Source of the DNA: Parcubacteria group bacterium
GTDB taxonomy: Bacteria > Patescibacteriota > Minisyncoccia > Moranbacterales > UBA2206
NCBI GenBank assembly: GCA_041674205.1
Contig: JBAYWF010000001.1
Span: 149,003 to 213,002 of the forward strand
Direction: 5' to 3'
DNA length: 64,000 bases
Below are positions 8,261 to 41,015 of this stretch, piece by piece. Each line of letters begins with the position of its first letter. The stretch's first letter is position 1. The position numbers and the translations under genes are program-made. Under the pieces are notes generated by a model that had not been told where the DNA came from, searched no databases, and saw nothing but the letters and a program-made list of their open reading frames with translations.

Positions 8261-9442
8261 ATGAAAAAAATGATCAAAAGCGGGCTCATCGTGCTTGCGG
8301 TCGCTGCGATTGCCGGGTATGGAACATACTCGTTCTTCAGCGACACAGAAACATCGACGGGAAACAATTTTACCGCAGGAGAAATCGACCTGACCGTAAC
8401 CCATACTGACAGCGCTACGGACGGCGCTTGTACGTTTGACAATACATCAGGCGGACCGATTTTTAATTGTACCGATGTAAAACCTGGGGACGCAGGTGAA
8501 AGCACGTTGACATTCAACCTTACAAGCAACCCTGCTTGGGCATGTATGTATGTGGATAATGTCGTTGATAGCGATAATGGATGCAATGATCCGGAATTGG
8601 CCGCTGAATCAGTTTGTGCGGTAGATGGAAATGGTGAATTGGACGACGCTTTGATGCTTACTGTTTGGGTTGACGATGGGGTTGGAGGTGGAATAGTATG
8701 CAATAATATCCGAGACGGATCGGAACAAATAATTATAGAAGATCAGTCATTGAGCTCTTTCGTGTTACCAACAGGAGGCTATGTCCTTCCTATTTCAGAC
8801 GCGAGTGCCGATTCTATGATGGCTGATCCAGTCCAACCGGGTGACCATTGTGTCGGTGTCGCGTGGAGTGTCGATCCAACGGCAGGAAACGAAGTGCAGA
8901 CGGATAAATTAGGCGGTGATCTGACCTTCTATGTTGAACAGGCAAGAAACAATGATGGATTCACATGCGCGGCACATTTCACGCCTGCGGAAGGAGTGCA
9001 AACATTGACTCTTGAAAATGAGATACAGAATCCGACAGGACCTTGGACACCGATTACCGGTGACGGGATACAAGGAACATTAGCTTGGCAAGGAGATGGA
9101 GATACATTTGATTACACTCTAGCTGCGCAAGGATTACCCGCTAATTCATCATACAGTTTGATTTATTATGCTGATCCTTACCCAGGTAATAATCCAGGTA
9201 AATTAATCGGAACACACATGACCGATGGAGGTGGCAACATCAATGCTGCTGGAAATCCAGATCTAGGAATGGATTTGCCAGATCCTGCAGATGCTAACTT
9301 CGGGACTGGTGCTAAGATTTGGTTGATTCCAAGCAGTGCATATGATGCTGCGAGCAGTAGTATCATTTCTTGGACACCAGATACTACTACCTGGTTGTTC
9401 GAAGGTAATGTTTACATCCATTACAACGATACGAATAACTAA
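8261..9442 (+). CDS. TasA/camelysin-like secreted protein with SipW-cognate signal peptide (paralog 1)
   Basis: The N-terminus AIAGYGTYSFFSDTETSTGNNFTAGEIDL resembles the B. subtilis TasA signal/cleavage region (TWAAFNDIKSKDATFASGTLDL). It shares internal motifs VKPGDAGE...AWACM and ADLTFYVEQARNN with paralog 2. Confidence 0.7.
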   Translation: MKKMIKSGLIVLAVAAIAGYGTYSFFSDTETSTGNNFTAGEIDLTVTHTDSATDGACTFDNTSGGPIFNCTDVKPGDAGESTLTFNLTSNPAWACMYVDNVVDSDNGCNDPELAAESVCAVDGNGELDDALMLTVWVDDGVGGGIVCNNIRDGSEQIIIEDQSLSSFVLPTGGYVLPISDASADSMMADPVQPGDHCVGVAWSVDPTAGNEVQTDKLGGDLTFYVEQARNNDGFTCAAHFTPAEGVQTLTLENEIQNPTGPWTPITGDGIQGTLAWQGDGDTFDYTLAAQGLPANSSYSLIYYADPYPGNNPGKLIGTHMTDGGGNINAAGNPDLGMDLPDPADANFGTGAKIWLIPSSAYDAASSSIISWTPDTTTWLFEGNVYIHYNDTNN

Positions 9443-9553
9443 ACAAGATGTAGTCTTTCACTTCCGCTCATTTTCAAAATGGGCGGGAGAATAAAGATCT
9501 AAGGATAATTAATTACTTGCATAAGTAAGTACCTAAGTAAGTATTAAAACAAT

Positions 9554-10897
9554 ATGGTGAAAATATTGAAAAGCCTTACAATCGTCATTGCCATCGCGGC
9601 CATCGCGGGGGGAGCATCCTATTCGTTTTTCTCCGACACGGAAACGTCGACTGGCAATATGTTCACGGCGGGGGTTATCAATTTAAAAATTGATAATTCA
9701 AGTTATGCCATAGATTCTGTTATTCCTGGGTTTGATGATCCGGTGGGAGATTTGGTTGCGAGTCCGCACAATACCTGGTCCTATGACAACCTCACCGATC
9801 AACTATTTTTCAATTTTGAAGATTTGAAACCGGGGGATATAGGGGAAGACACGATCGGTTTGCAAGTTTCCAGTAATGACGCTTGGGCGTGCATGAAGGT
9901 GGACATAACGGACACTCCTGAAAATGATTTGATAGATCCGGAAGCGGAAGCGGGGGACAAGACGGAAAAGAACGGGGAGCTTCAAGATGAGCTAAGTTTC
10001 GCTTTTTGGGCGGATGACGGGGACAATGTATATGAAGATGAGGAAGTCATGCTTGACGACGGCAATCCAGGCATATTTTTAGAAGGAAAAGCCGCGGATA
10101 TTTTCAAAAATAAATTTATTACGCTGGCTGATTCAACGACTGATGTGTGGCCTGGCGGCAATGGACATCCGATAATTGCAGGCGAAAATTATTATATTGC
10201 TAAGGTTTGGTGCTTTGGAGAATTGACCCCGGCACCTGTCTCATCCGGAGATGGAGATCCTCTCCATCGCGGAACCGGATTTTTATGTGATGGAGACTCA
10301 GTTTCCAGCGCGTCTCAAACGGATGGGATAAAAGCGGATGTGACGTTTTATTCGGAACAAGCCAGGAACAATCCGCAGTTCGTTTGTTATCAGCAGGAGT
10401 GTTCGGCTGATGCTGTCTATACGTCAGAGGTCGTAAGTAATATCCAAGGCACGCTTAATGACGGTAGTCCCGTCATTGATCCGGATCGGACTGACCCGGA
10501 TGAAGCCAATGGTCCGCCGGATTGGGTTAGCGGAACCGGTACGAACTTTTATAGTCTGGGTAAGGATGGGACGGTGACTTTGAAATTTGCCGATATGGTC
10601 GGCAATGGTAATGGAAATGACCTCGCTGTCTATGAAGTGACCAATGGGCGCGATTCATATCCGCTGGAAAGTGCGGATGTGGAAGTGAGTCTCAATGGAA
10701 AGACTTGGTATCCTGTCGGCGTAGCTACGAGTGAACCTGGTGGGGATGGCGTTTCATATTTTGACATATCTTCCACCCCTCTTTCAATGTTCAAATATGT
10801 AAGACTGGCTGATTCGACTGATTTCTCTTTGCACAACAGTATTTCCGACGGGTTTGACTTGGATGCGGTTGGCGCTATCTACGGGGAATGTGAATAA
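9554..10897 (+). CDS. TasA/camelysin-like secreted protein with SipW-cognate signal peptide (paralog 2)
   Basis: N-terminus AIAGGASYSFFSDTETSTGNMFTAGVINL, plus LKPGDIGEDTIGL...AWACMKVD and ADVTFYSEQARNN motifs. Confidence 0.7.
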   Translation: MVKILKSLTIVIAIAAIAGGASYSFFSDTETSTGNMFTAGVINLKIDNSSYAIDSVIPGFDDPVGDLVASPHNTWSYDNLTDQLFFNFEDLKPGDIGEDTIGLQVSSNDAWACMKVDITDTPENDLIDPEAEAGDKTEKNGELQDELSFAFWADDGDNVYEDEEVMLDDGNPGIFLEGKAADIFKNKFITLADSTTDVWPGGNGHPIIAGENYYIAKVWCFGELTPAPVSSGDGDPLHRGTGFLCDGDSVSSASQTDGIKADVTFYSEQARNNPQFVCYQQECSADAVYTSEVVSNIQGTLNDGSPVIDPDRTDPDEANGPPDWVSGTGTNFYSLGKDGTVTLKFADMVGNGNGNDLAVYEVTNGRDSYPLESADVEVSLNGKTWYPVGVATSEPGGDGVSYFDISSTPLSMFKYVRLADSTDFSLHNSISDGFDLDAVGAIYGECE

Positions 10898-10944
10898 TCA
10901 TTGCTAAATAGGTGTCCCATTGCGTGTTATAAAAATATATCTCA

Positions 10945-12027
10945 ATGAGTAAAATTCTAACAAGATTTTCTAGAAACCTGATTATAGCCATTTTTATTTT
11001 AGCTATGGGGGGATATGAGACGTATGCTTGTGTCGTGCAAGGCAAGGAGCCTTTTTGGCATAACTTTCCCGATAAGAAATTGGATTTGGAGATAAGTTAT
11101 GCCGGATATTATAATAAGGATGCCGACAACCATCCTAATGCGGGAAGCTGGCGGCAACAGGACCTGACTACGCAGAAATTTTTTGATTTCTATGATATCA
11201 AACCGGGCGATTTCGGTGAGGGCACAATCGGTTTGCGCCTCAAACACCAAGACGCTTGGGGTTGTGCTACCATCCGTCCGACCGAAAACGATGATAACGG
11301 CTCCACTGAACCGGAATTGCTCGAGGATGCGCAAAATGCGGCAGCTGATAAATGGGATGGCGAGTTGGCGAAAAAAATTAATTTTAAGATCTGGGCCGAT
11401 GTTTGTTCGAAAAGATATGTGAAAGCGGGCGATAACGTTTTTCAGCCTGATTGCGATCGGCTTATAACCAGCGGTACCGGTCCGTTGCAGGAGCTTAACT
11501 TGGTTTTGGCTGACGCTGAAAATCCGAATGTTTTCAATGGGAATATAGGACCGCTCAAAAAAAACAAAAACTATTATATAGGCGTAGATTGGAATATCGA
11601 TTCGGATGTCGGCAATATCATCCAAACTGATTCATATAAGGCAGACATAACTTTTTTTGTCCAGCAGTCGGACGGCAACCAGGACTTCCGTTGCGCGGAT
11701 ATCCGTAATGATGATCCGGATAAATGCGCGGATGGCGCCATACGCAATTGTTATTCAGGTGATTTCGATAAAATCGATATCGGCATCTGTCGAAGCGGGA
11801 CTGAAGCTTGCGTTCAAGGAAATTGGGGAAATTGTTCCGGAGAGATTTTACCTGACAAGGAAATCTGCAAAGACAATCTGGATAACGACTGTGACGGGCA
11901 AATCAATAAAGGATGCCCGCCGATATGCCAGCGCGTGAGTGATTGCGATGACCACAATTCAAAAACCGATGACAACTGCGTGAACAAAGAATGCGTGCAT
12001 GCGGAGAAAAAGAACTTAAAGCGGTAA
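10945..12027 (+). CDS. TasA-like paralog 3 with C-terminal Cys-rich MopE-like putative metal-binding domain
   Basis: Shares IKPGDFGEGTIGL...AWGCATI and ADITFFVQQSDGN with paralogs 1 and 2. It has a different hydrophobic N-terminus. The C-terminal ~110 aa carry about 16 Cys, including CKDNLDNDCDGQINKGC (a C-x-DG-x-DNDCDG signature). Confidence 0.6.
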   Translation: MSKILTRFSRNLIIAIFILAMGGYETYACVVQGKEPFWHNFPDKKLDLEISYAGYYNKDADNHPNAGSWRQQDLTTQKFFDFYDIKPGDFGEGTIGLRLKHQDAWGCATIRPTENDDNGSTEPELLEDAQNAAADKWDGELAKKINFKIWADVCSKRYVKAGDNVFQPDCDRLITSGTGPLQELNLVLADAENPNVFNGNIGPLKKNKNYYIGVDWNIDSDVGNIIQTDSYKADITFFVQQSDGNQDFRCADIRNDDPDKCADGAIRNCYSGDFDKIDIGICRSGTEACVQGNWGNCSGEILPDKEICKDNLDNDCDGQINKGCPPICQRVSDCDDHNSKTDDNCVNKECVHAEKKNLKR

Positions 12028-12050
12028 CACATAAGATAATATGAAAAGAT

Positions 12051-12707
12051 ATGCTAGATAAAATTTTTAAAATTTTAAAAAATCTCATTTGGACTGCAAT
12101 CGTCGCATTTCTGATTTTGATCGGCATAACATTCATTCCGATCAAAGGAAATTACAAGGTTTATACGGTACAATCAGGTTCGATGGAGCCAGCTATCCAT
12201 ACCGGCAGTTTGATTTTTGTCAAAAGCCAGGAGGATTACAACGTCGGTGACATTGTAACGCGGGCGACCAAAGATCCAAGAGTGACTGTCACGCATCGTA
12301 TCATTTCTAAAAAAACGGAAGGTAGTAAGGTAGTATTTGAAACCAAAGGAGATGCTAATGAGGATCCAGATAGGGAAAGCGTAAGCCAAGATAGGATTAT
12401 CGGCAAGGAATTTTTTCAGATACCGTATATCGGTTATCCAGTCGGATATGCTCGGACGATGCCAGGATTCATCATTCTTATAATTATCCCAGCTGTAATT
12501 ATCGTTTATGAAGAGATTAGGAAAATCAAAGAAGAAATCGTGAATATTTGGAAAAAGAAAAATGGGAAAGAAGATCTGCCTGCGGAAGATCATTTATTGG
12601 AAAAGAAATATGTTCGGGTGTCGAGAGAAGATAATATCTCAAATATAAGTTTTGAAACTAAGGAAAATCAGACTAAGAAAGAAAAAATCAGTCGGAAAAA
12701 AAGATAA
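12051..12707 (+). CDS. sipW: signal peptidase I, archaeal/eukaryotic type (SipW-like, S26B)
   Basis: N-terminal TM anchor, catalytic Ser motif VQSGSMEPAI, conserved His in VTHRIIS, and KGDANEDPD box. It has a Lys-rich C-terminal tail. Confidence 0.8.
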   Translation: MLDKIFKILKNLIWTAIVAFLILIGITFIPIKGNYKVYTVQSGSMEPAIHTGSLIFVKSQEDYNVGDIVTRATKDPRVTVTHRIISKKTEGSKVVFETKGDANEDPDRESVSQDRIIGKEFFQIPYIGYPVGYARTMPGFIILIIIPAVIIVYEEIRKIKEEIVNIWKKKNGKEDLPAEDHLLEKKYVRVSREDNISNISFETKENQTKKEKISRKKR

Positions 12708-26810: not shown

Positions 26811-27278
26811 ATGTTGGACATCAAACCTTATCGCCAAAAGCCTGGATTTTGCGGTCCGTCTGCCTTGAAGATGGTGTTGGGTTTCTATGGTGTGGAGAAA
26901 AGCGAGGATGAATTGGGCTGTCTTACCAAGTGCGATCCGGACAAAGGCATTACCGGGTCAGCCATTGTCAAAGCGGCCGGGGAATTGGGTTTTGCCGGGT
27001 TTGTGAAAGATTCTGCCGAGCTGGAGGATATCCAGAAATTTTTAGACCAAAAGATACCTGTCATCGTGGAGTGGTTTTCGGAGGATGACGGGCACTATTC
27101 GGTGGTGGTGGAGATGGATAAGGAAAATATTTATTTGCAAGATCCGGAATTGGCCGGATTGCGGAAATTTGATTTGGAAACTTTCAGGAGGGTCTGGTTC
27201 ACCTTCGGCGGTGAATTTATGCGGACTAAAGACGACCTGATCTTGCGCCGGATGGTCGTAATTGAAAAGAAAGGTTAA
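26811..27278 (+). CDS. standalone C39-like cysteine peptidase domain protein
   Basis: RQKPGFCGPSALKMVLGFYG matches the C39 Gln/Cys N-terminal block (Q...DCG.A.L.M...YG). DGHYSVVVEMDKENIYLQDP matches the C39 His block (gHfVV......v.i.DP). Confidence 0.6.
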   Translation: MLDIKPYRQKPGFCGPSALKMVLGFYGVEKSEDELGCLTKCDPDKGITGSAIVKAAGELGFAGFVKDSAELEDIQKFLDQKIPVIVEWFSEDDGHYSVVVEMDKENIYLQDPELAGLRKFDLETFRRVWFTFGGEFMRTKDDLILRRMVVIEKKG

Positions 27279-27968: not shown

Positions 27969-30560
27969 TTATGGCGCGTAAGTAGTGTTTTTTTCAAAAA
28001 CCAGATATCTCACGTCGGCGTCTTTTTGTGATTTGTCCTGGAAGTAGCGGGTGGCGACGTATTTGTTTTCCAAGTTTTGGTTGCCGATGATTTTTCCGCC
28101 AGAATCTTTTTCGGGAAGCAGTTTTTTCAGCGCTTCCTGGAATCCGAAGAAGTCTTTTTGCACATCGAAACGCAGGACAATCGTTTCGTCGCCGATCAGC
28201 GCGTCGAGATTTCCATAGTCTTGCGCCATCGCCGCAAGCTCCGGATAACTTCTGGCGTCTTCTTTTTCTTTGCCTTCATCGCGGAAAGAATAATCCTTGT
28301 TGGCTTTTTGATCAAGCGTTATGTTGATGACCGGTTCGCCGGTTCCTTGCAAATCCGGCACGATTCCGTCGATGACGAACCCGTATTTTTCCACATAAGC
28401 CGTTCCGACCGCGATGCGCGGGGAAGTGGTGGCGCGGATGACGTTCTTTTTCGCTTTGTCTTGGATGATTTTTTCAAGCATTTCAGTCCCGATTTTGAGA
28501 CCGTGCAGATCCTTGGAAACCCCGAAGGAACTGGCGAAAAGTTCGTTCTCGCCGAGCCGCGCGAATTTCATAAACGCGATCAATTCGCCTTGGTATTTGA
28601 GCGCGTAGCATTCGAACCGTTCCGGATTTTCCAACAGATCCGCTTCCAGTTTTTCTCCGGCATAAACGCCGGCGAGGGCGGGGACTTGCCCGAGCCAATT
28701 TTCCCGCGTCATCGCGACCGCTTTGCGCGCGTCCTCCTCGTCCAACCCCTCTCCGAACCCCGAAACCTCCAAATCCAAATCCCGGATCATCTCAAAATCG
28801 ATTTCCTGTCCGGATTGTTTGAGGGATTTGAGGAAAGAAGAAAGCAGAATTATTTCCGTCCGTTTTGATTTGAGCTTTTCAATCAGTTCCGCTATGTCGT
28901 TTTCGCTCGCACCGCTCCGGATGTTTTCCGAAAATTCAATGATTATGGTGCGGGCTTCTTCGAGTAGTTGCAACTTTAGCAGATGCCCCATATCGGAATC
29001 AACGTCTTTCGTGATGATTTTTTCCAGAGATCCAGCTTCTTTTTCAGATAGATCGATTATCTGGGAAACTCTTTCAAAAATTTCGGCGGCCTTATCGGGA
29101 GAAATTTTTTCTCCTATGTTCAAAATTTTCCGGCTGTCTTGCAAATCGAATTCACAGATTAAAAATGCTTTCAATCCGTCCAGCTTATAATTTTCCGCGA
29201 ATGAATATAACCTATCTAGCTCGCCGGAAAAACCCAAGTCATACGCGGCAGCGGCCAACCATTGTTGTTCATGCCAAGTGATATTATGTATGCCTGTTCC
29301 GGTTTTTGCCGCAAAATCTCGGGAAATTTTTTGGATAAAGTCATAATTCGTAATAGATCTCAATCTTTTCGCATAATCTTCCGGGCTTTCTTCTTTTCTT
29401 TGCGGATTTTCTTGTGTGATGTCCCATGGCGCAGTCCGGGATAATGTTTCGTCCCTGTCTAATAGCATATAGGCAGTTACCCTGAAGTTGTCCGGCATTT
29501 TTTTCTCCGCCATAATCTTTTGCCTTCTTTGCGTTTTTTCTTCATCGTCCAAAAGGTCGATGACATATTTCACTTCCTTGTAGTTTCCATTATTGGCTAT
29601 GATTCCCGCTTTGCCTTTTTCCAATATAACTATCGTTATGTTTTCCGCAGGTATTCCTTTAAGAAGTGGCAATCCCAGCGCCTTTTTGCCGATAGGATAG
29701 CGCACGCCTTCAAGCCGGACATCGTAATCTATTTCGGACAAGTAAATTTCTTTCCTTTGGACTTCACTGCCTTTTTTCGTCGTCGCCAAATTGAAATCTT
29801 CAAGCTGGACAAGTCCGCTAGCCAGAAGGTTTTTGCATTGGGATGCGAGCGTTTTGTGCGGATTCTGGCTGAAAGACTCTTTGCCTTCGCCAAGATTGCC
29901 GATGAGTTTCTTTGTCCGTTGGGCAGTTAACTTTACAAAACTATTTTTTTCTTCGTCAAAGATCATTAGATTCCCATTTTCATCCCTATATCCTTGATGG
30001 GTTCTGAGTATTTCAGTCGCCAGGGCCATTTCTTTTGCTCCGATTTCTTCACCGTTTTTCGTTTTGATTTTGTAATCCCACTTGCCTTTAATACTTGTTT
30101 TGCCGGGAGCATCATATTGATTCCAATAATTCAAATAATATTTTTTGTCTTTTACAGAATCAATATCGAAAGCCTCTTCCTTGTTTGCAGGAATATTAAA
30201 CAAGGGGATTGCTTCCGGAATAGGAAGATTGTTTTGTATGGCGTTATCAAAGTCTTTTTTTGATACGATAGGAAATTCTCCCAATTGTTCAAAAAACAAT
30301 TGATAAACATTAGAGCATTTATTTTTTTCCAACGAAATCCCTTTTTCCGCATAACTATTTTTGGAAACAAGGAGGGCGGAAAATTTTTCCAAATCCAAAA
30401 TAGGAATCCCTTCATGGAATTCCATTATCCCATTTTCTTGCAGGATTTCCAGAACCTTCTCCTTTGTCTCCTCACGCTCCTGATTTTTTTCCGGGGTAAG
30501 TATTTTCGGATCGGAAGTCCCGGGATTTGGCATAAAAGGCTCGCGCATCATATATTTCAT
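27969..30560 (-). CDS. large (863 aa) cytoplasmic hypothetical protein with C-terminal GNAT-like acetyltransferase domain
   Basis: No TM or signal. Residues about 640-740 show a GNAT-like core (YALKYQGELIAFMKF..., VSKDLHGLKIGTEMLEKII = motif A-like R/QxxGxG/A, then YVEKYGFV). The N-terminal 600 aa are unassigned. Confidence 0.55.
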   Translation of the reverse strand: MKYMMREPFMPNPGTSDPKILTPEKNQEREETKEKVLEILQENGIMEFHEGIPILDLEKFSALLVSKNSYAEKGISLEKNKCSNVYQLFFEQLGEFPIVSKKDFDNAIQNNLPIPEAIPLFNIPANKEEAFDIDSVKDKKYYLNYWNQYDAPGKTSIKGKWDYKIKTKNGEEIGAKEMALATEILRTHQGYRDENGNLMIFDEEKNSFVKLTAQRTKKLIGNLGEGKESFSQNPHKTLASQCKNLLASGLVQLEDFNLATTKKGSEVQRKEIYLSEIDYDVRLEGVRYPIGKKALGLPLLKGIPAENITIVILEKGKAGIIANNGNYKEVKYVIDLLDDEEKTQRRQKIMAEKKMPDNFRVTAYMLLDRDETLSRTAPWDITQENPQRKEESPEDYAKRLRSITNYDFIQKISRDFAAKTGTGIHNITWHEQQWLAAAAYDLGFSGELDRLYSFAENYKLDGLKAFLICEFDLQDSRKILNIGEKISPDKAAEIFERVSQIIDLSEKEAGSLEKIITKDVDSDMGHLLKLQLLEEARTIIIEFSENIRSGASENDIAELIEKLKSKRTEIILLSSFLKSLKQSGQEIDFEMIRDLDLEVSGFGEGLDEEDARKAVAMTRENWLGQVPALAGVYAGEKLEADLLENPERFECYALKYQGELIAFMKFARLGENELFASSFGVSKDLHGLKIGTEMLEKIIQDKAKKNVIRATTSPRIAVGTAYVEKYGFVIDGIVPDLQGTGEPVINITLDQKANKDYSFRDEGKEKEDARSYPELAAMAQDYGNLDALIGDETIVLRFDVQKDFFGFQEALKKLLPEKDSGGKIIGNQNLENKYVATRYFQDKSQKDADVRYLVFEKNTTYAP

Positions 30561-30815
30561 TTGGAAAATTATGCTCTCATTCTACCATCTTCATAGCAAA
30601 AAAACCAACAAAATCCGCAGAACATCCAATGAGGGATCTGAATGATCCTCAAGAGAGAGATTTGAAAAATCGCCCAAAATCCCTCTTTGCTCCGCGAAAT
30701 TCTATCGGTTTTTTGCAAGTTTATTTGTAAAAATAGCTACTATGAAATTTCAATATATTAAAATATCAATAATAGAGCGAACCCGTGAAATTACAACGAG
30801 TTCGCTTATGGATTG

Positions 30816-31319
30816 TCACCACTCAAGAATAAATTTTGATGGTGCCAACTTTTCGTCCGCCAGGGAGTTTTTGATTAGGAATTCTTTTTTTCCGTCATGA
30901 GACCGGATCGTATAAAGTCCCAACCAAACCAACTCAAAAACTTCCTGGTGTTGGTTTTCTGGAACCACCTCCTTCAGTTTGTTTTTGAAAACACTTTCAG
31001 TAATGCCGAGACAGGGTATCATGGGATCGATACTATCAGTCTCTTCGAGGGCTTTTTTATAAAAACTCTCGAAAAGTTGCAGATCTGCCCACTCATAGTT
31101 TGTCTCCGCTGGAGTGTCAGCGTCAAAAGGCTCAAATACTCCGAGGGCTTGCACTACCTCTTTTCTGCCACAAAATTTCCTTCTTCTCTTAAAATATAAA
31201 TACCAAGAAGAAGGATTTTCCGGAGCCTGCTCAAGCCTTGCTGAAACAAATGCCCTTCGTTTTGGCATATTATTAAATGCCTTGACTGCTTCAAGAATAG
31301 CCTCTTCATAGTTTTTCAT
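30816..31319 (-). CDS. hypothetical protein (cassette gene 3)
   Basis: 167 aa, with an AGGAGG RBS on the minus strand (ccctccttg on +). Confidence 0.45.
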   Translation of the reverse strand: MKNYEEAILEAVKAFNNMPKRRAFVSARLEQAPENPSSWYLYFKRRRKFCGRKEVVQALGVFEPFDADTPAETNYEWADLQLFESFYKKALEETDSIDPMIPCLGITESVFKNKLKEVVPENQHQEVFELVWLGLYTIRSHDGKKEFLIKNSLADEKLAPSKFILEW

Positions 31320-31350
31320 GGCTGCACCCTCCTTGTTCTTGTTTTTAAGA

Positions 31351-31426
31351 GTACTTCTGAAAATTTATATTTCAATAATATAAACTTTATTGAAGGGGCA
31401 AGCGGTCGGATGACGCGCTTGCCCAT
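31351..31426. repeat. 76-nt intergenic repeat, copy 2: terminator hairpin (gggcaagcg/cgcttgccc) plus AT-rich inverted repeat (ttcaataa/ttattgaa), continuing into a conserved RBS region
   Basis: About 89% identical to 31861-31936. The stem is conserved while the loop differs. Confidence 0.6.
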
Positions 31427-31428
31427 AG

Positions 31429-31836
31429 CTAGATGATTTCACTAACTATATCAACATGTTCAAAATCATACTCCCAAGTTAATCTGCAGTCATTGCATAC
31501 ACAGCTCATTTTTCTAAAAGTGGACTGTATTTTTTTGAGCAGTTTTTTTCCGATTTTACTTTGTGCGTCGATAAAGACACCTGCCTTGGCTTCAACTTCT
31601 ATCTCGTGATATATGTGAGATATAGTCAATCCGCTCATTAGTGTGCATTCCTCCGGATCATCGCTGATCTTACAACTCTCTCTGCACACTCTGCAGGTGA
31701 GGGTGGGGTCATCAAAGACACGCTCTTCGATGCAAATTGGCACCGAGTAGAGGGTTTTCCCAACTTTGATTCCCACCACCCTGTTTATGGAGTGATATTG
31801 CTCTGTTATAATAGGGGATATCTCTGTTTTATTCAT
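31429..31836 (-). CDS. hypothetical Cys-rich small protein (cassette gene 2), possible zinc-finger/ribbon
   Basis: 135 aa with CRVCRESC and CVCNDC pairs. AGGAGG RBS on the minus strand. Confidence 0.45.
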   Translation of the reverse strand: MNKTEISPIITEQYHSINRVVGIKVGKTLYSVPICIEERVFDDPTLTCRVCRESCKISDDPEECTLMSGLTISHIYHEIEVEAKAGVFIDAQSKIGKKLLKKIQSTFRKMSCVCNDCRLTWEYDFEHVDIVSEII

Positions 31837-31860
31837 GGTTCCTCCTAGGTTTTTTTGAAG

Positions 31861-31936
31861 GTACTTCTAAGAGTTTATATTTCAATAATATAAACTTTAT
31901 TGAAGGGGCAAGCGATCAAATGACACGCTTGCCCAT
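31861..31936. repeat. 76-nt intergenic repeat, copy 1
   Basis: Repeat of 31351-31426. A third, diverged copy (AT-rich tttcaata motif plus agcgaac/gttcgct hairpin) lies at about 30740-30806. Confidence 0.6.
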
Positions 31937-31941
31937 ACCCT

Positions 31942-32577
31942 CTAGCCTAGTGACCAGTAAGACAAGAAGTCCTTATCGGCTGTGGCATCAGCATACCAAG
32001 CCGATAGTTCCGGAATGGTGACTTTTTTCTCGTCATACTCTTCAGACGAGAAAAAAACATACCAAGGAAAAAGATATTGTTCGTCCTCTTTGATGGAGGA
32101 TAAACAACGTCTACGCTCTTTGTTAAGCGGGGTCAACCTATGATAGGGAATTTTTTCAATTATTCCCTCATATGCTGAAGGCATCTCAATTCCACTTTCA
32201 TGCGCGCCAATTACAATCATCGCGTAGCAATCAAGTATAAAAAATGCCATTGACACCAGTAATTGGTTTTTTTGTTCGAGACTTTTAACCATCTCGACCA
32301 CGATTTTTGCGTTTTCATCATCGCGGTCAAAATTGCATCCCAGTTCGTTTCCACTAAGATCGAATGTCACGCCTGATCCTAAAACCTCAACTGCCATTTC
32401 GACTCCGCGAATAATTCGCGGGGTGATTTTTGCGGGCATTATTGAAGATACCTCATTAAATCTGGCTTCGTCGCACGCCCCTATAATGTGTTCAAAACCT
32501 ATTGAACACAAAAAGGATTCTTGTTTGGACATTTTGTTTAAAAATGACACCAACCGTTTGATTCTTCTCTTATTCAT
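31942..32577 (-). CDS. hypothetical protein (cassette gene 1)
   Basis: 211-aa ORF. I recognise no family. Confidence 0.45.
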   Translation of the reverse strand: MNKRRIKRLVSFLNKMSKQESFLCSIGFEHIIGACDEARFNEVSSIMPAKITPRIIRGVEMAVEVLGSGVTFDLSGNELGCNFDRDDENAKIVVEMVKSLEQKNQLLVSMAFFILDCYAMIVIGAHESGIEMPSAYEGIIEKIPYHRLTPLNKERRRCLSSIKEDEQYLFPWYVFFSSEEYDEKKVTIPELSAWYADATADKDFLSYWSLG

Positions 32578-32799
32578 GGTTTTCTCCTGTCAGGGATTGA
32601 TTTTAAAAGAACTTTTGTCAAGTCTGCCCGCCTTGGGAGGAATCTATCTTTTTTGCTCTCTCATCTTGACTTGGCAGTATAGCATAATGGGAGCGGAATG
32701 TCAATAACAAAAAGCACAAAAATGGCTAATTTGTCATAATTTTGCTAACAAAAAGAAATAATTTGGCTTGGTTTCGTTTGCAAAGTGTCATATCCAAAA

Positions 32800-32829
32800 T
32801 TGACACAATCTTCAAAATCTGCTAAAATA
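32800..32829 (+). promoter_or_regulatory. sigma-70-like promoter (TTGACA-18-TAAAAT) for the TrmB-family regulator gene
   Basis: TTGACA at 32800-32805 and TAAAAT at 32824-32829. Confidence 0.4.
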
Positions 32830-32861
32830 ACAGCAGGATTAACTTTGTAAAGACAGCGGAT

Positions 32862-33617
32862 ATGGAAAATAGCATATTTTTAGCAGCCGGATTGACCCAG
32901 GCGCAAGGGGAAGTGCTGGACTTCCTGTTGGAAAACGGGGAGTGCCGGGCCAGTTTCATCACCCGCCGGATCAACCGTCCCCGGGGCGTGGTCTATAAAG
33001 TGCTGGATGATTTGGAAAAGATGGGGCTGGCGAAGCGCAAGGATCTGGCGGACAGCGTGGGCGTCTATGTTTCCGAACATCCGGCGAAAATCGAGGAATT
33101 GTTCGAACGGAAAGCGCGGGAATTGGAGCGGCAGAGGCGGATTTTTTCCCAGGTGTTGCCGGATTTGGTTTCTTCCTACAACCTGTCCAGCGACAAACCG
33201 GACATCAGGTTTCTGGAAGGCAATGAGGGGATCAGGACCGTAATCGAGGATACCCTCAAAAGCCAGGGGGAGATCCGCACGTTCATCGATATGGAGGCGC
33301 TCGAATCGGATCCGGAACTGGTGGAGATAAACCGGGAATATGTCAAAAAAAGGGTGAAGACCAACACCCGGAAAAAGATGATCGTCCCGGAATCGGACCG
33401 GAAATATTTCAAGGATTACGACACCTCTATGACCGAAGTGCGGTTTTTGAAAGGGGACGCCTATCCGTTCAAGTCCGGTATGCAGATATATGGCAACAAG
33501 GTGTCTTTCCAAACCATCGACAAGGGCAAGCGGATCGCGGTCATCATCGAAGACAAAAATATCTGCGAAATGCACAAATTGCTTTTCGAATATATCTGGA
33601 AAACGCTGGAAACGTAG
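32862..33617 (+). CDS. TrmB-family (sugar-responsive) transcriptional regulator
   Basis: N-terminal winged-HTH LTQAQGEVLDFLLENGECRASFITRRINRPRGVVYKVLDDLEKMGLAKR, typical of TrmB, plus a C-terminal effector domain. Confidence 0.75.
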   Translation: MENSIFLAAGLTQAQGEVLDFLLENGECRASFITRRINRPRGVVYKVLDDLEKMGLAKRKDLADSVGVYVSEHPAKIEELFERKARELERQRRIFSQVLPDLVSSYNLSSDKPDIRFLEGNEGIRTVIEDTLKSQGEIRTFIDMEALESDPELVEINREYVKKRVKTNTRKKMIVPESDRKYFKDYDTSMTEVRFLKGDAYPFKSGMQIYGNKVSFQTIDKGKRIAVIIEDKNICEMHKLLFEYIWKTLET

Positions 33618-40460: not shown

Positions 40461-41015
40461 ATGGAAAAAGCAGATCGACAATTGATTGAAGAATTTTTGG
40501 ACGGATCGGATGATTCCTTTGAATATCTGGTGGGGCGGTATTTGAAACCGGTTTATAACTTCCTATACCAATTCACCCAAGACCGGGATTCCCTGGACGA
40601 TCTGACGCAGGAAACTTTCATCAAGGCTTGGAAGAATATCAAAAAATTCGACCCGGAAAAAAATTTCCGGACTTGGCTTTTTACGATCGCCAAAAACACG
40701 GCCTATGATTTTTTGAAAAAGAAAAAAACCCTGCCCTTTTCCGATTTTCTTGATGAAGCGGGGAATAACAGGCTGGAAAACGTAGTCGAGGACGGTCCTC
40801 GGCTGGAAGAGGTCTTGGCCGGAAAAGATCTGGCGCGAGAGTTGGAAAAGAAATTGCAAGAGATTCCCGATAGCTACCGCATCCTCCTGCTGATGCGCTA
40901 CAAAGATGGTTTTTCACTCCAAGAAATCGCCCAAATTCTCGACCTGCCCTACAACACCGTCAAAAGCCAGCACGCACGGGCTCTGGCCAGCCTGAAAAAA
41001 ACCTGGCTGGCCTGA
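40461..41015 (+). CDS. ECF-subfamily RNA polymerase sigma-70 factor
   Basis: Region 2 (LTQETFIKAWKNIKKFDPEKNFRTWLFTIAKN) and region 4 HTH (SLQEIAQILDLPYNTVKSQHARA). Confidence 0.85.
   Translation: MEKADRQLIEEFLDGSDDSFEYLVGRYLKPVYNFLYQFTQDRDSLDDLTQETFIKAWKNIKKFDPEKNFRTWLFTIAKNTAYDFLKKKKTLPFSDFLDEAGNNRLENVVEDGPRLEEVLAGKDLARELEKKLQEIPDSYRILLLMRYKDGFSLQEIAQILDLPYNTVKSQHARALASLKKTWLA

Follow-up and report, generated by a model that had tools for sequence, protein, structure and literature searches.

A 64-kb window (the whole stretch analysed here, positions 149,003 to 213,002 of contig JBAYWF010000001.1, numbered from its first letter) of a 322-kb contig from a Parcubacteria-group metagenome-assembled genome (MAG) of the Candidate Phyla Radiation (CPR) carries an array of small, unrelated genes that are separated by repeated and structured intergenic modules. 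On the minus strand, a promoter is followed by gene A, junction J1, gene B, junction J2, gene C, junction J3, a long hairpin and a large gene that we call Big. The three small genes, referred to as cassettes, are ORFans by homology searches. Cassette A (31942-32577, 211 amino acids (aa)) is the first in this array and the last in a related array of Moranbacteria, B (31429-31836, 135 aa) is flanked by direct-repeat modules on both sides in all three arrays that were compared, and C (30816-31319, 167 aa) precedes J3. The array lies between two fixed genes. Its left end is a TrmB-family winged-helix regulator (32862-33617, plus strand; Pfam TrmB, E=1.1e-8), which is divergent from the array, and its right end is Big (27969-30560, minus strand, 863 aa), composed of an N-domain of ~600 aa (28761-30560), a GNAT domain (about 28371-28637) and a C-terminal tail.

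A preliminary description of this DNA reported nearly identical junctions between genes that are not homologous to each other, and this observation is confirmed. A repeat search of the window returned an 86-nt direct repeat (31342-31427 and 31852-31937) with 88% identity and a spacing of 510, and its 33-nt core CCTTCAATAAAGTTTATATTATTGAAATATAAA occurs exactly 2 times in the 64 kb, with 0 occurrences expected from 100 shuffles. Homology between the genes was not detected by hhalign (probability <1%), neither among A, B and C nor among all six cassette families (A-F) of the related arrays. The layout of the junctions was borne out as well: behind a stop codon come a 9-bp hairpin (GGGCAAGCG/CGCTTGCCC), whose loops differ, and an AT-rich palindrome, and a spacer rich in A leads to AGGAGG and ATG. 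J1 (31837-31941, minus strand) harbors a first hairpin (HP1) at 31906-31934, a second hairpin (HP2, including its CTTC/GAAG closing stem) at 31864-31905, the A-rich spacer and a ribosome-binding site (RBS) at 31841-31846. In J2 (31320-31428, minus strand) the corresponding elements lie at 31396-31424 (HP1), 31354-31395 (HP2) and 31328-31333 (RBS). A covariance model of the module, built from seven junctions, matched J1 (104.9 bits) and J2 (101.3 bits) and nothing else in the window.

When folded as RNA, the junctions all follow a common plan of stop codon, HP1, linker, HP2, A-rich spacer, AGGAGG and ATG. HP1 is a GC-rich hairpin of 9-13 bp 3' of the stop codon. The linker between the two hairpins is a short (C)TTCAATAAA, in which the single-stranded TCAAT(A/T)AA is conserved. 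HP2 is rich in A and T, with the stem AGTTTATATT/AATATAAACT and the closing stem CTTC/GAAG. An AT-rich inverted repeat is present at the place where it was first described; the pair named then, TTCAATAA/TTATTGAA, overlaps HP2 and is not the conserved one, since it is the overlapping CTTC...GAAG-closed stem that is kept by compensatory changes in relatives. In an alignment of eight type-1 junctions, 87.6% of cells are paired, compared with at most 52% when the partners are slid by 1-3 columns. Seven pairs are changed on both sides, a number reached by 1 of 500 shuffles, the covariation score is 0.214 versus 0.129, and one HP2 pair is GU in five of the eight sequences. Three copies form a second sequence type (type 2), which has the two-hairpin plan as well; in these, 98.7% of cells are paired, three pairs are compensatory and two U-G pairs are invariant throughout. 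Both hairpins are supported by compensatory changes. Single junctions illustrate the same behavior: in the D-B junction of the Moranbacteria array (L002) the HP2 loop changes from ATTGA to GTCGG while the stem is kept, and the A-Big and E-C junctions of L002 have other stem sequences with unchanged geometry. The sense RNA of type 2 folds 5-13 kcal/mol better than the antisense RNA. From reading of the sequences and folds, the Shine-Dalgarno sequence (SD) can pair with a CCUUC/ACUCUU stretch located 5' of AGGAGG. Known RNA families did not match the window at gathering thresholds, and matches at E<=1 in the array and in the related locus L026 were sub-threshold noise.

J3 (30737-30805, minus strand; HP1 30777-30805, HP2 30737-30775) belongs to type 2. 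It had been regarded as a third, diverged copy of the J1/J2 module, and the two-hairpin layout was recognised correctly; its sequence is of the distinct type, which stands behind cassette C in each of the three genomes, irrespective of the gene after it. Instead of ending in an RBS, as had been assumed, J3 is continued by a long hairpin resembling a terminator and by the putative Big promoter.

The 65-nt core that precedes B has 59 of 65 positions (91%) in common between the window and L002, whereas the adjoining B gene shows 74/85/55% identity at codon positions 1/2/3; compared with the third-position rate, this conservation has P ~4e-10. Four further CPR lineages have the module at the corresponding locus, some of them with a Big of only 27-39% identity. 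The locus L026 (Parcubacteria; Big 39% identical) has homologous modules between its genes (GGGACAAGC...GCTTGTCCC, then CTCAATTAAA and HP2; 71-74 bits), and the Falkowbacteria locus L028 (Big 27% identical) has two weaker copies, situated 40-46 nt 5' of start codons. The covariance model recovered copies outside its training set, namely the E-B junction of the third lineage L005 (91 bits) and the E-C (41 bits) and B-E (25 bits) junctions of L002. Exact-pattern scans gave three matches in viral contigs and 11 in metagenome contigs of the Joint Genome Institute (JGI); the hairpin context was present only at the Moranbacteria locus, and the remaining matches are chance occurrences that lack a hairpin. 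In a 788-kb Moranbacteria contig the 20-mer occurs once. A dispersed repeat, such as a repetitive extragenic palindrome (REP), bacterial interspersed mosaic element (BIME) or miniature inverted-repeat transposable element (MITE), was rejected on these grounds: two copies in 64 kb, one 20-mer in 788 kb and other matches by chance. Because distant homologues exist, the core is conserved and exact words were not matched outside this locus type, the module is regarded as old, selected and locus-specific, and as neither a recent duplication nor a dispersed repeat.

Comparison of cassette order provides further evidence for a modular array. From TrmB to Big, the order is A-B-C in the window, D-B-E-C-A in L002 and D-F-E-B-C in L005, and the genes outside TrmB...Big are different in all three genomes. 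In these three contexts, the shared families thus stand in different orders, while the two end genes stay fixed. The DNA identity between the window and L005 is 71% for TrmB, 72% for the leader, 93% for the junction upstream of B, 99.0% for B (97.8% at third positions), 90% for J2, 83% for C and 80% for Big. A sliding comparison delimited an exchange tract at 31398-31914 with 99.2% identity to L005 (four mismatches), outside of which identity decays to 63-83%. Its limits are the HP1 loop of J1 (31914) and the HP1 3' arm of J2 (31398). Cassette B has been exchanged recently, with breakpoints at the hairpins. In addition, chimeric modules were observed: the loop in the E-B junction of L005 joins the J1 and J2 variants, and the D-B junction of L002 has an HP2 arm of the J2 type together with a spacer of the J1 type.

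The base composition of the cassettes does not follow that of the hosts. In both the window and L002, cassettes A, B, C and E and the first 600 Big codons have a G+C content at third codon positions (GC3) of 0.40-0.51; for the host-like genes (TrmB, D and the C-terminus of Big) the values are 0.61-0.71 (window) and 0.23-0.32 (L002). L005 shows only a weak contrast (0.30-0.43 for cassettes and the N-part of Big, 0.35-0.41 for host-like genes). Within Big of the window, GC3 is cassette-like (0.43) over the N-terminal 600 residues and host-like (0.61) in the GNAT-containing C-terminus, and a breakpoint near residue 600 (about 28750) separates an N-part that is 70-90% identical to L005 from a C-part of 38-50% identity. 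Between the strains L005 and L006, one single-nucleotide polymorphism (SNP) was found in 4.3 kb of leader, array and Big N-part, 24 in the last 0.8 kb of Big and six in TrmB. Judged from these sequence comparisons, the array moves with the N-domain of Big, and single cassettes move on their own as well. The proposal of a modular, horizontally assembled cassette array, made before any relatives had been compared, is therefore supported by permuted families between fixed ends, a recent exchange bounded by junction hairpins and a GC3 that is independent of host GC. A search for the module elsewhere and for variation at the locus, suggested at the same time, gave a divided answer: the module was found again only at loci of this type, and the locus varies between species, with strains being identical.

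The cassette proteins themselves are rarely represented in databases. Apart from the records of A and C themselves (100% identical), each of the three proteins had a single homologue among 5.8 billion (5.8e9) proteins: for A at 58% identity (Candidatus Moranbacteria GW2011_GWE2_35_2), for B at 99% and for C at 73%. The middle gene is Cys-rich, as previously noted; B contains eight Cys residues, including C48xxC51 and C112xC114xxC117. An identity of the small proteins as immunity proteins, which had been considered, was not supported: the Pfam colicin-immunity match has E=0.17, and Pfam, PADLOC, PHROGs, NCBIfam and PDB searches returned nothing significant apart from one motif in A. Residues 142-182 of A (window 32032-32154, minus strand) match the Csx30 N-terminal domain (NCBIfam NF041234, E=5.7e-12). 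In type III-E systems this domain is the anti-sigma-like part that binds RpoE (PMC9825189). A was not accepted as a Csx30 family member, because it scores 45 bits against a cut-off of 125 and only over these residues, so that it has a motif in common and not membership; a match to PDB 8eey_E (138-167) has E=1. The AlphaFold2 (AF2) model of A, computed without an alignment, has a pLDDT of 39. This 40-residue motif shared with Csx30 is the sole candidate lead to a function among the cassettes. A gene for an extracytoplasmic function (ECF)-type sigma factor is located at 40461-41015 (plus strand) in the same window.

With regard to transcription, the array is preceded by a strong promoter, TTGACA-17-TATACT with an upstream TG (32676-32704, minus strand; 11/12 match). 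The form ATTGACA-17-TGCTATACT is kept in L002, L005 and L031, and L026 has TTGACA-17-TATAAT at the equivalent place. Downstream, a 5' leader (32617-32670, minus strand) contains, from reading of the sequence, a hairpin GTCAAG...CTTGAC and the conserved start motif TCAAGATGAGAGAGC, which lies directly 3' of the promoter in L002 and L031 and as the variant TTAAGATGAAAAT in L026. The TCAAGATGAGA leader recurs in L002, L005 and L031, with a variant in L026. Within the divergent promoter region, a palindrome GTGTCA-N10-TGACAC (32785-32806) overlaps the -35 element of the trmB promoter and is a candidate TrmB operator; TGTCA-N8-10-TGACA palindromes occur at the equivalent place in L002, L005, L026 and L031, and TrmB may bind to them.

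The junctions had been described as terminator-promoter units. This part of the description was not supported. In a consensus scan, no -35/-10 pair in J1 or J2 reached 9/12 of a sigma-70-like promoter, and in both junctions HP1 is followed by CUUCAAUAAA without a U-tract, was unflagged by the terminator scan and was rejected as a canonical intrinsic terminator. Only J3 contains a weak 9/12 promoter-like match (TTGTAA-16-TATTAT, 30796-30769), whose hexamers recur in L002 by reading. After the last cassette, the probable terminator of the array transcript is a long, imperfect hairpin with a U-run at its end (30601-30712, minus strand; minimum free energy -52 kcal/mol, z = -4.7). It is conserved in L002 (about 10735-10840), and L005 has a short hairpin and a T-run there. 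It is followed by a putative Big promoter with an extended -10 element, TTGGTT-18-TGgTAGAAT (30579-30608, minus strand), which was read by eye and unflagged by the consensus scan; L005 has TGgTAAAAT at this place. Because the long hairpin and then the extended -10 site follow the last cassette, the cassettes look like one transcription unit and Big like another.

Several observations were made on the leaders of related loci. The motif CAAATCTCTCTC of the long hairpin recurs in the L026 and L031 leaders. Between promoter and first cargo gene, these two loci have GC-richer, apparently structured noncoding leaders of 0.5-2 kb (L026 7640-8240; L031 1860-2790 and 3550-4010), which have the blocks AGTAATGAGTGrGGrTGGAGA... 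and CTGTAAGTGA...TCACTTrCAG in common. The L026 leader, the one of the two that was scanned, had no Rfam match. Potentially, these long leaders could represent an undescribed RNA. Furthermore, the junctions of L026 at 9400-9465 and 9075-9140 each contain a third hairpin with a partial copy of array promoter and leader start (TTGAAC..TGAAAAAGGATTTAAGATGAAAAT, compared with TTGACA..TGAAAAAGGTATATAATGGATTGTTAAGATGAAAAT at the array head), which looks like the promoter minus its -10 box.

Big is a member of an uncharacterised protein family that is now defined by its ~600-aa N-domain together with GNAT. The N-domain has no Pfam family and no PDB sequence match. Among 1.84 billion proteins, the N-domain family (600 aa) comprised 468 cluster representatives, 230 of them at E <= 1e-10, and the GNAT domain was detectable in 24 of 52 family members. 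All named members are from CPR bacteria (Moranbacteria, Parcubacteria and Falkowbacteria). Big was not matched in phage or plasmid records, and a scan of the GTDB species representatives with stringent peptide patterns found only a Moranbacteria genome. An alignment-based AF2 model of full-length Big reached a pLDDT of 88 and a pTM of 0.79; among the top PDB fold matches listed, only the GNAT part is covered, which resembles protein acetyltransferases of the RimI/Nat type.

A TrmB-family gene adjoins Big in eight of the ten lineages examined. In seven of these it was found by BLAST and in the eighth, the P0015 locus, by Pfam only; L036 and L038 have no TrmB in the sequence available. Full-length TrmB orthologues (31-63% identity) adjoin the Big-family gene in L002, L005, L026, L028, L031 and L033. 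Most TrmB-Big loci contain a variable cargo, which is located on the side of TrmB opposite to its coding strand, under the promoter divergent from TrmB. The cargo consists of ORFan cassettes in the window, L002, L005 and L026, of a ubiquitin-like operon (E2-like, JAB, ThiF-E1 and a small protein) in L028 and L031, of an AAA+ module and unknowns in L033, and of a radical-SAM protein and a SAVED-like protein at the P0015 locus. A small GIY-YIG gene often accompanies the cargos of L028, L031, L033 and P0015. PADLOC gave only weak E1-E2 and AAA matches in the cargo of L031, L033 and L026, which stays unclassified. The TrmB-Big locus looks like a cargo or defence hotspot, where the label of defence is taken from Pfam domain names only. 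We found no prior description of this CPR locus in the literature.

The best explanation, to which we assign a probability of about 50%, is that the modules are structured intercistronic connectors that double as portable homology for cassette shuffling. According to this model, the three small genes would be cassettes of a variable cargo operon in a CPR-specific locus type that consists of a TrmB regulator, a strong promoter that is divergent and provides a conserved leader, the cargo, a terminator and the N-domain-GNAT protein with its own promoter. The connector of ~90 nt would act as an intercistronic insulator in a polycistronic transcript: it might provide a 3'-end protecting or attenuating hairpin to the upstream cistron, and a standard 5' structure and translation start to the downstream cistron, so that any cassette could be expressed at any array position. 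As unrelated genes are flanked by the same ~90 nt, the connectors could serve as portable homology for recombination within the array or with incoming DNA of related CPR bacteria, and such recombination would delete, insert, replace or reorder cassettes and leave the genes intact. The two-hairpin structure, the purifying selection, the permuted order, the hairpin-bounded exchange and the host-mismatched composition were observed directly, as were the repeat, its presence at this locus type in distant lineages and the lack of attC cores and of an integrase within 10 kb; we infer the role of the connector at the RNA level, recombination as the cause of the permutations and anything said about what the cassettes do.

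Several observations weigh against this model. Only three arrays with common cassette families are available (window, L002/L025 and L005), and strains are identical at the array: L002, L003, L004, L013 and L017 agree at 100% and L025 at 99.9% in the array comparison, and L005-L009 at no less than 99.5%, so that strain-level cassette polymorphism was absent from the lineages compared (the L002 group and L005-L009). Shuffling is therefore rare, and the mechanism rests on one dated exchange event and the permutations. In addition, the covariance model did not find the module in the cargo of the related loci L031 and L035, and some L005 junctions are short and lack it; the module is thus not obligatory. 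The sense and antisense folds of type 1 are about equally stable, which would also permit a hairpin at the DNA level. Finally, the single-stranded TCAAT(A/T)AA linker is invariant, a feature that plain homologous recombination does not need and that suggests sequence-specific recognition by some factor. Owing to the invariant linker and the equal stability of the type-1 strands, a site-specific, hairpin-directed mechanism stays a minority rival.

It is conceivable that the modules serve solely in RNA regulation or processing (as RNase sites, attenuators or switches that sequester the SD), and that the order of cassettes changes by ordinary rearrangement and by transfer of whole segments over conserved flanks. 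The covariation, the retained G-U pairs, the strong purifying selection and the stretch that can pair with the SD are all in line with this, and the array was exchanged together with the N-part of Big as a block, among strains as well as lineages, whose breakpoints lie in TrmB, the leader and near Big residue 600 and not in modules. The 99% tract around B, on the other hand, stops at both flanking HP1 hairpins, chimeric modules exist, and a gene-by-gene permutation with intact junctions is hard to achieve by random rearrangement in a 2-kb array. We consider a role at the RNA level only to be rather unlikely.

A capture mechanism resembling that of integrons appears less probable still. Here, the hairpins would be sites for an enzyme other than a tyrosine integrase, encoded elsewhere or represented by the Big N-domain, which cuts at the TCAAT linker. 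It would agree with the conservation of hairpin structure rather than sequence next to an invariant unpaired motif, the co-orientation of all cassettes behind one strong promoter, the limits of the exchange tract and the equal stability of the type-1 strands, as expected of DNA hairpins. The N-domain of Big has moved together with the cassettes and separately from its own GNAT domain, and only the GNAT part is among the top PDB fold matches listed. The integron-like mechanism considered in the preliminary description was not supported: a regex search of 30500-32900 on both strands returned no pair of attC R'' (RYYYAAC) and R' (GTTRRRY) cores, with single cores only inside gene A, and in the contexts of the window, L002 and L005, no gene within 10 kb belongs to a recombinase Pfam family. 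With similarly low odds, it is tempting to speculate about a CPR gene-capture platform that is recombinase-less or uses a novel recombinase. In such a platform, a TrmB-controlled site would receive cassettes at two-hairpin TCAAT sites, the N-domain of Big would recognise the sites or the cassette products, and the whole would be a functional analogue of integrons that arose independently in ultra-small bacteria.

Alternatively, each junction might combine a terminator with an internal promoter and operator, so that every cassette would be a regulated unit of its own, similar to phage PeSLs (see below) or morons. The weak TTGTAA-16-TATTAT match overlaps the type-2 module with hexamers conserved in L002 (by reading), the L026 junctions hold a partial copy of the array promoter and leader, and the AT-rich palindromes could bind a regulator. 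This is opposed by the scan of J1 and J2, in which 9/12 was not reached, by an HP1 that lacks a U-tract, by the canonical form of the real promoters of the locus, and by HP2, which keeps its pairing while the sequence changes, the opposite of a sequence-specific operator or promoter; we regard such independent units as quite improbable. A recent local duplication of an intergenic segment without function of its own, proposed earlier as duplication of a promoter unit, would account for two near-identical copies 510 nt apart as the only ones in the window and is very improbable indeed, being contradicted by homologous modules in four other lineages, by conservation far above that of synonymous sites and by compensatory changes that keep both stems.

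CPR genomes are reduced, and little is known about how their accessory genes are acquired and reshuffled. The locus described here is a compact cargo site under the control of a regulator and has been exchanged between lineages of very different GC; its junctions are noncoding elements that are conserved above the second codon positions of the adjacent gene. If the modules are insulators and recombination patches at the same time, they would give a sequence-and-structure signature for finding further arrays. The Big family and the ORFan cassettes are candidates for phage- or host-interaction functions. Elsewhere in the window, three tandem genes (8261-12707, plus strand) encode secreted paralogues, two of which start with a ...SFFSDTETSTGN signal typical of TasA/camelysin-type proteins, and a 218-aa protein similar to SipW-type signal peptidases is encoded 3' of them; both observations are from translations only. 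Just downstream of the locus, a stand-alone 155-aa protein resembling Peptidase_C39/C70 was recognised by Pfam (26811-27278, plus strand), and no ABC transporter or bacteriocin gene was noticed beside it.

In a comparison with known systems, intercistronic hairpins for processing or stabilisation are familiar from the RNase III sites of the phage T7 early mRNA and from REP elements within operons. The modules resemble both, as hairpins without a U-tract between cistrons of one transcript that are repeated at successive junctions. REP elements are dispersed genome-wide, whereas the CPR module is restricted to one locus, and we know of no T7 RNase III sites or REP elements that travel with permuted cassettes. 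Integrons are characterised by attC sites with R''/R' cores, an IntI integrase, attI and a Pc promoter. The array has in common with them co-oriented cassettes, without a detectable promoter of their own, behind one strong upstream promoter, content that varies between relatives, structured imperfect palindromes at the boundaries whose structure is conserved above sequence, and a cassette composition unlike the host. The CPR hairpins differ in being short (9-13 bp) and paired and in including the ribosome-binding region of the next gene. An integron was rejected, as there is no attC core pair, no IntI or other recombinase nearby and no attI. Orphan-immunity arrays of Bacteroidales, known as recombinase-associated acquired interbacterial defence (rAID-1) arrays, contain a XerD-family recombinase at their head and homologues of type VI secretion system (T6SS) immunity genes (Ross et al., bioRxiv 10.1101/471110). 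They have small unrelated genes, repetitive intergenic sequence and a GC skewed from the flanks, as the array described here does, which is suggestive of active gene acquisition. A rAID-1 array was rejected, since neither a XerD-type recombinase (window, L002 and L005 contexts) nor immunity homologues were found; the fixed partners here are instead the TrmB regulator and the large GNAT protein.

The closest parallel is found in the promoter early stem-loop elements (PeSLs) of T4-type phages. These ~100-bp modules extend from the stop codon via a stem-loop to the SD/ATG and, within variable regions, flank ORFans (Arbiol et al. 2010, PMC2839356; Comeau et al. 2014, PMC4122927). They recombine by homology, shuffle genes and form mini-circles (PMC2839356; PMC4122927). 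The array was not classified as a strict PeSL system, because the module lies in a 322-kb CPR chromosomal contig and not in a hyperplastic region of a T4-like phage, and was not found in viral contigs. Further differences concern the consensus sigma-70 early promoter of PeSLs, for which J1 and J2 have no counterpart and J3 only the weak 9/12 match, and the copy number, with about 50 per phage genome versus 2-5 in one CPR chromosomal locus. Moreover, the CPR module has two hairpins and a conserved linker and persists over far greater divergence, with anchor proteins that are 27-39% identical. In both systems, a conserved intergenic module of ~100 nt with a stem-loop is placed between stop codon and SD/ATG, flanks non-homologous ORFans, marks the limits of insertions, deletions and replacements between relatives and is restricted to variable regions, and homologous recombination between modules has been proposed in both. 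By analogy, the array would work most like PeSLs and resembles integrons in its architecture. If the connectors indeed act as insulators and recombination patches, the PeSL principle would reach beyond T4-like phages into bacterial chromosomes.

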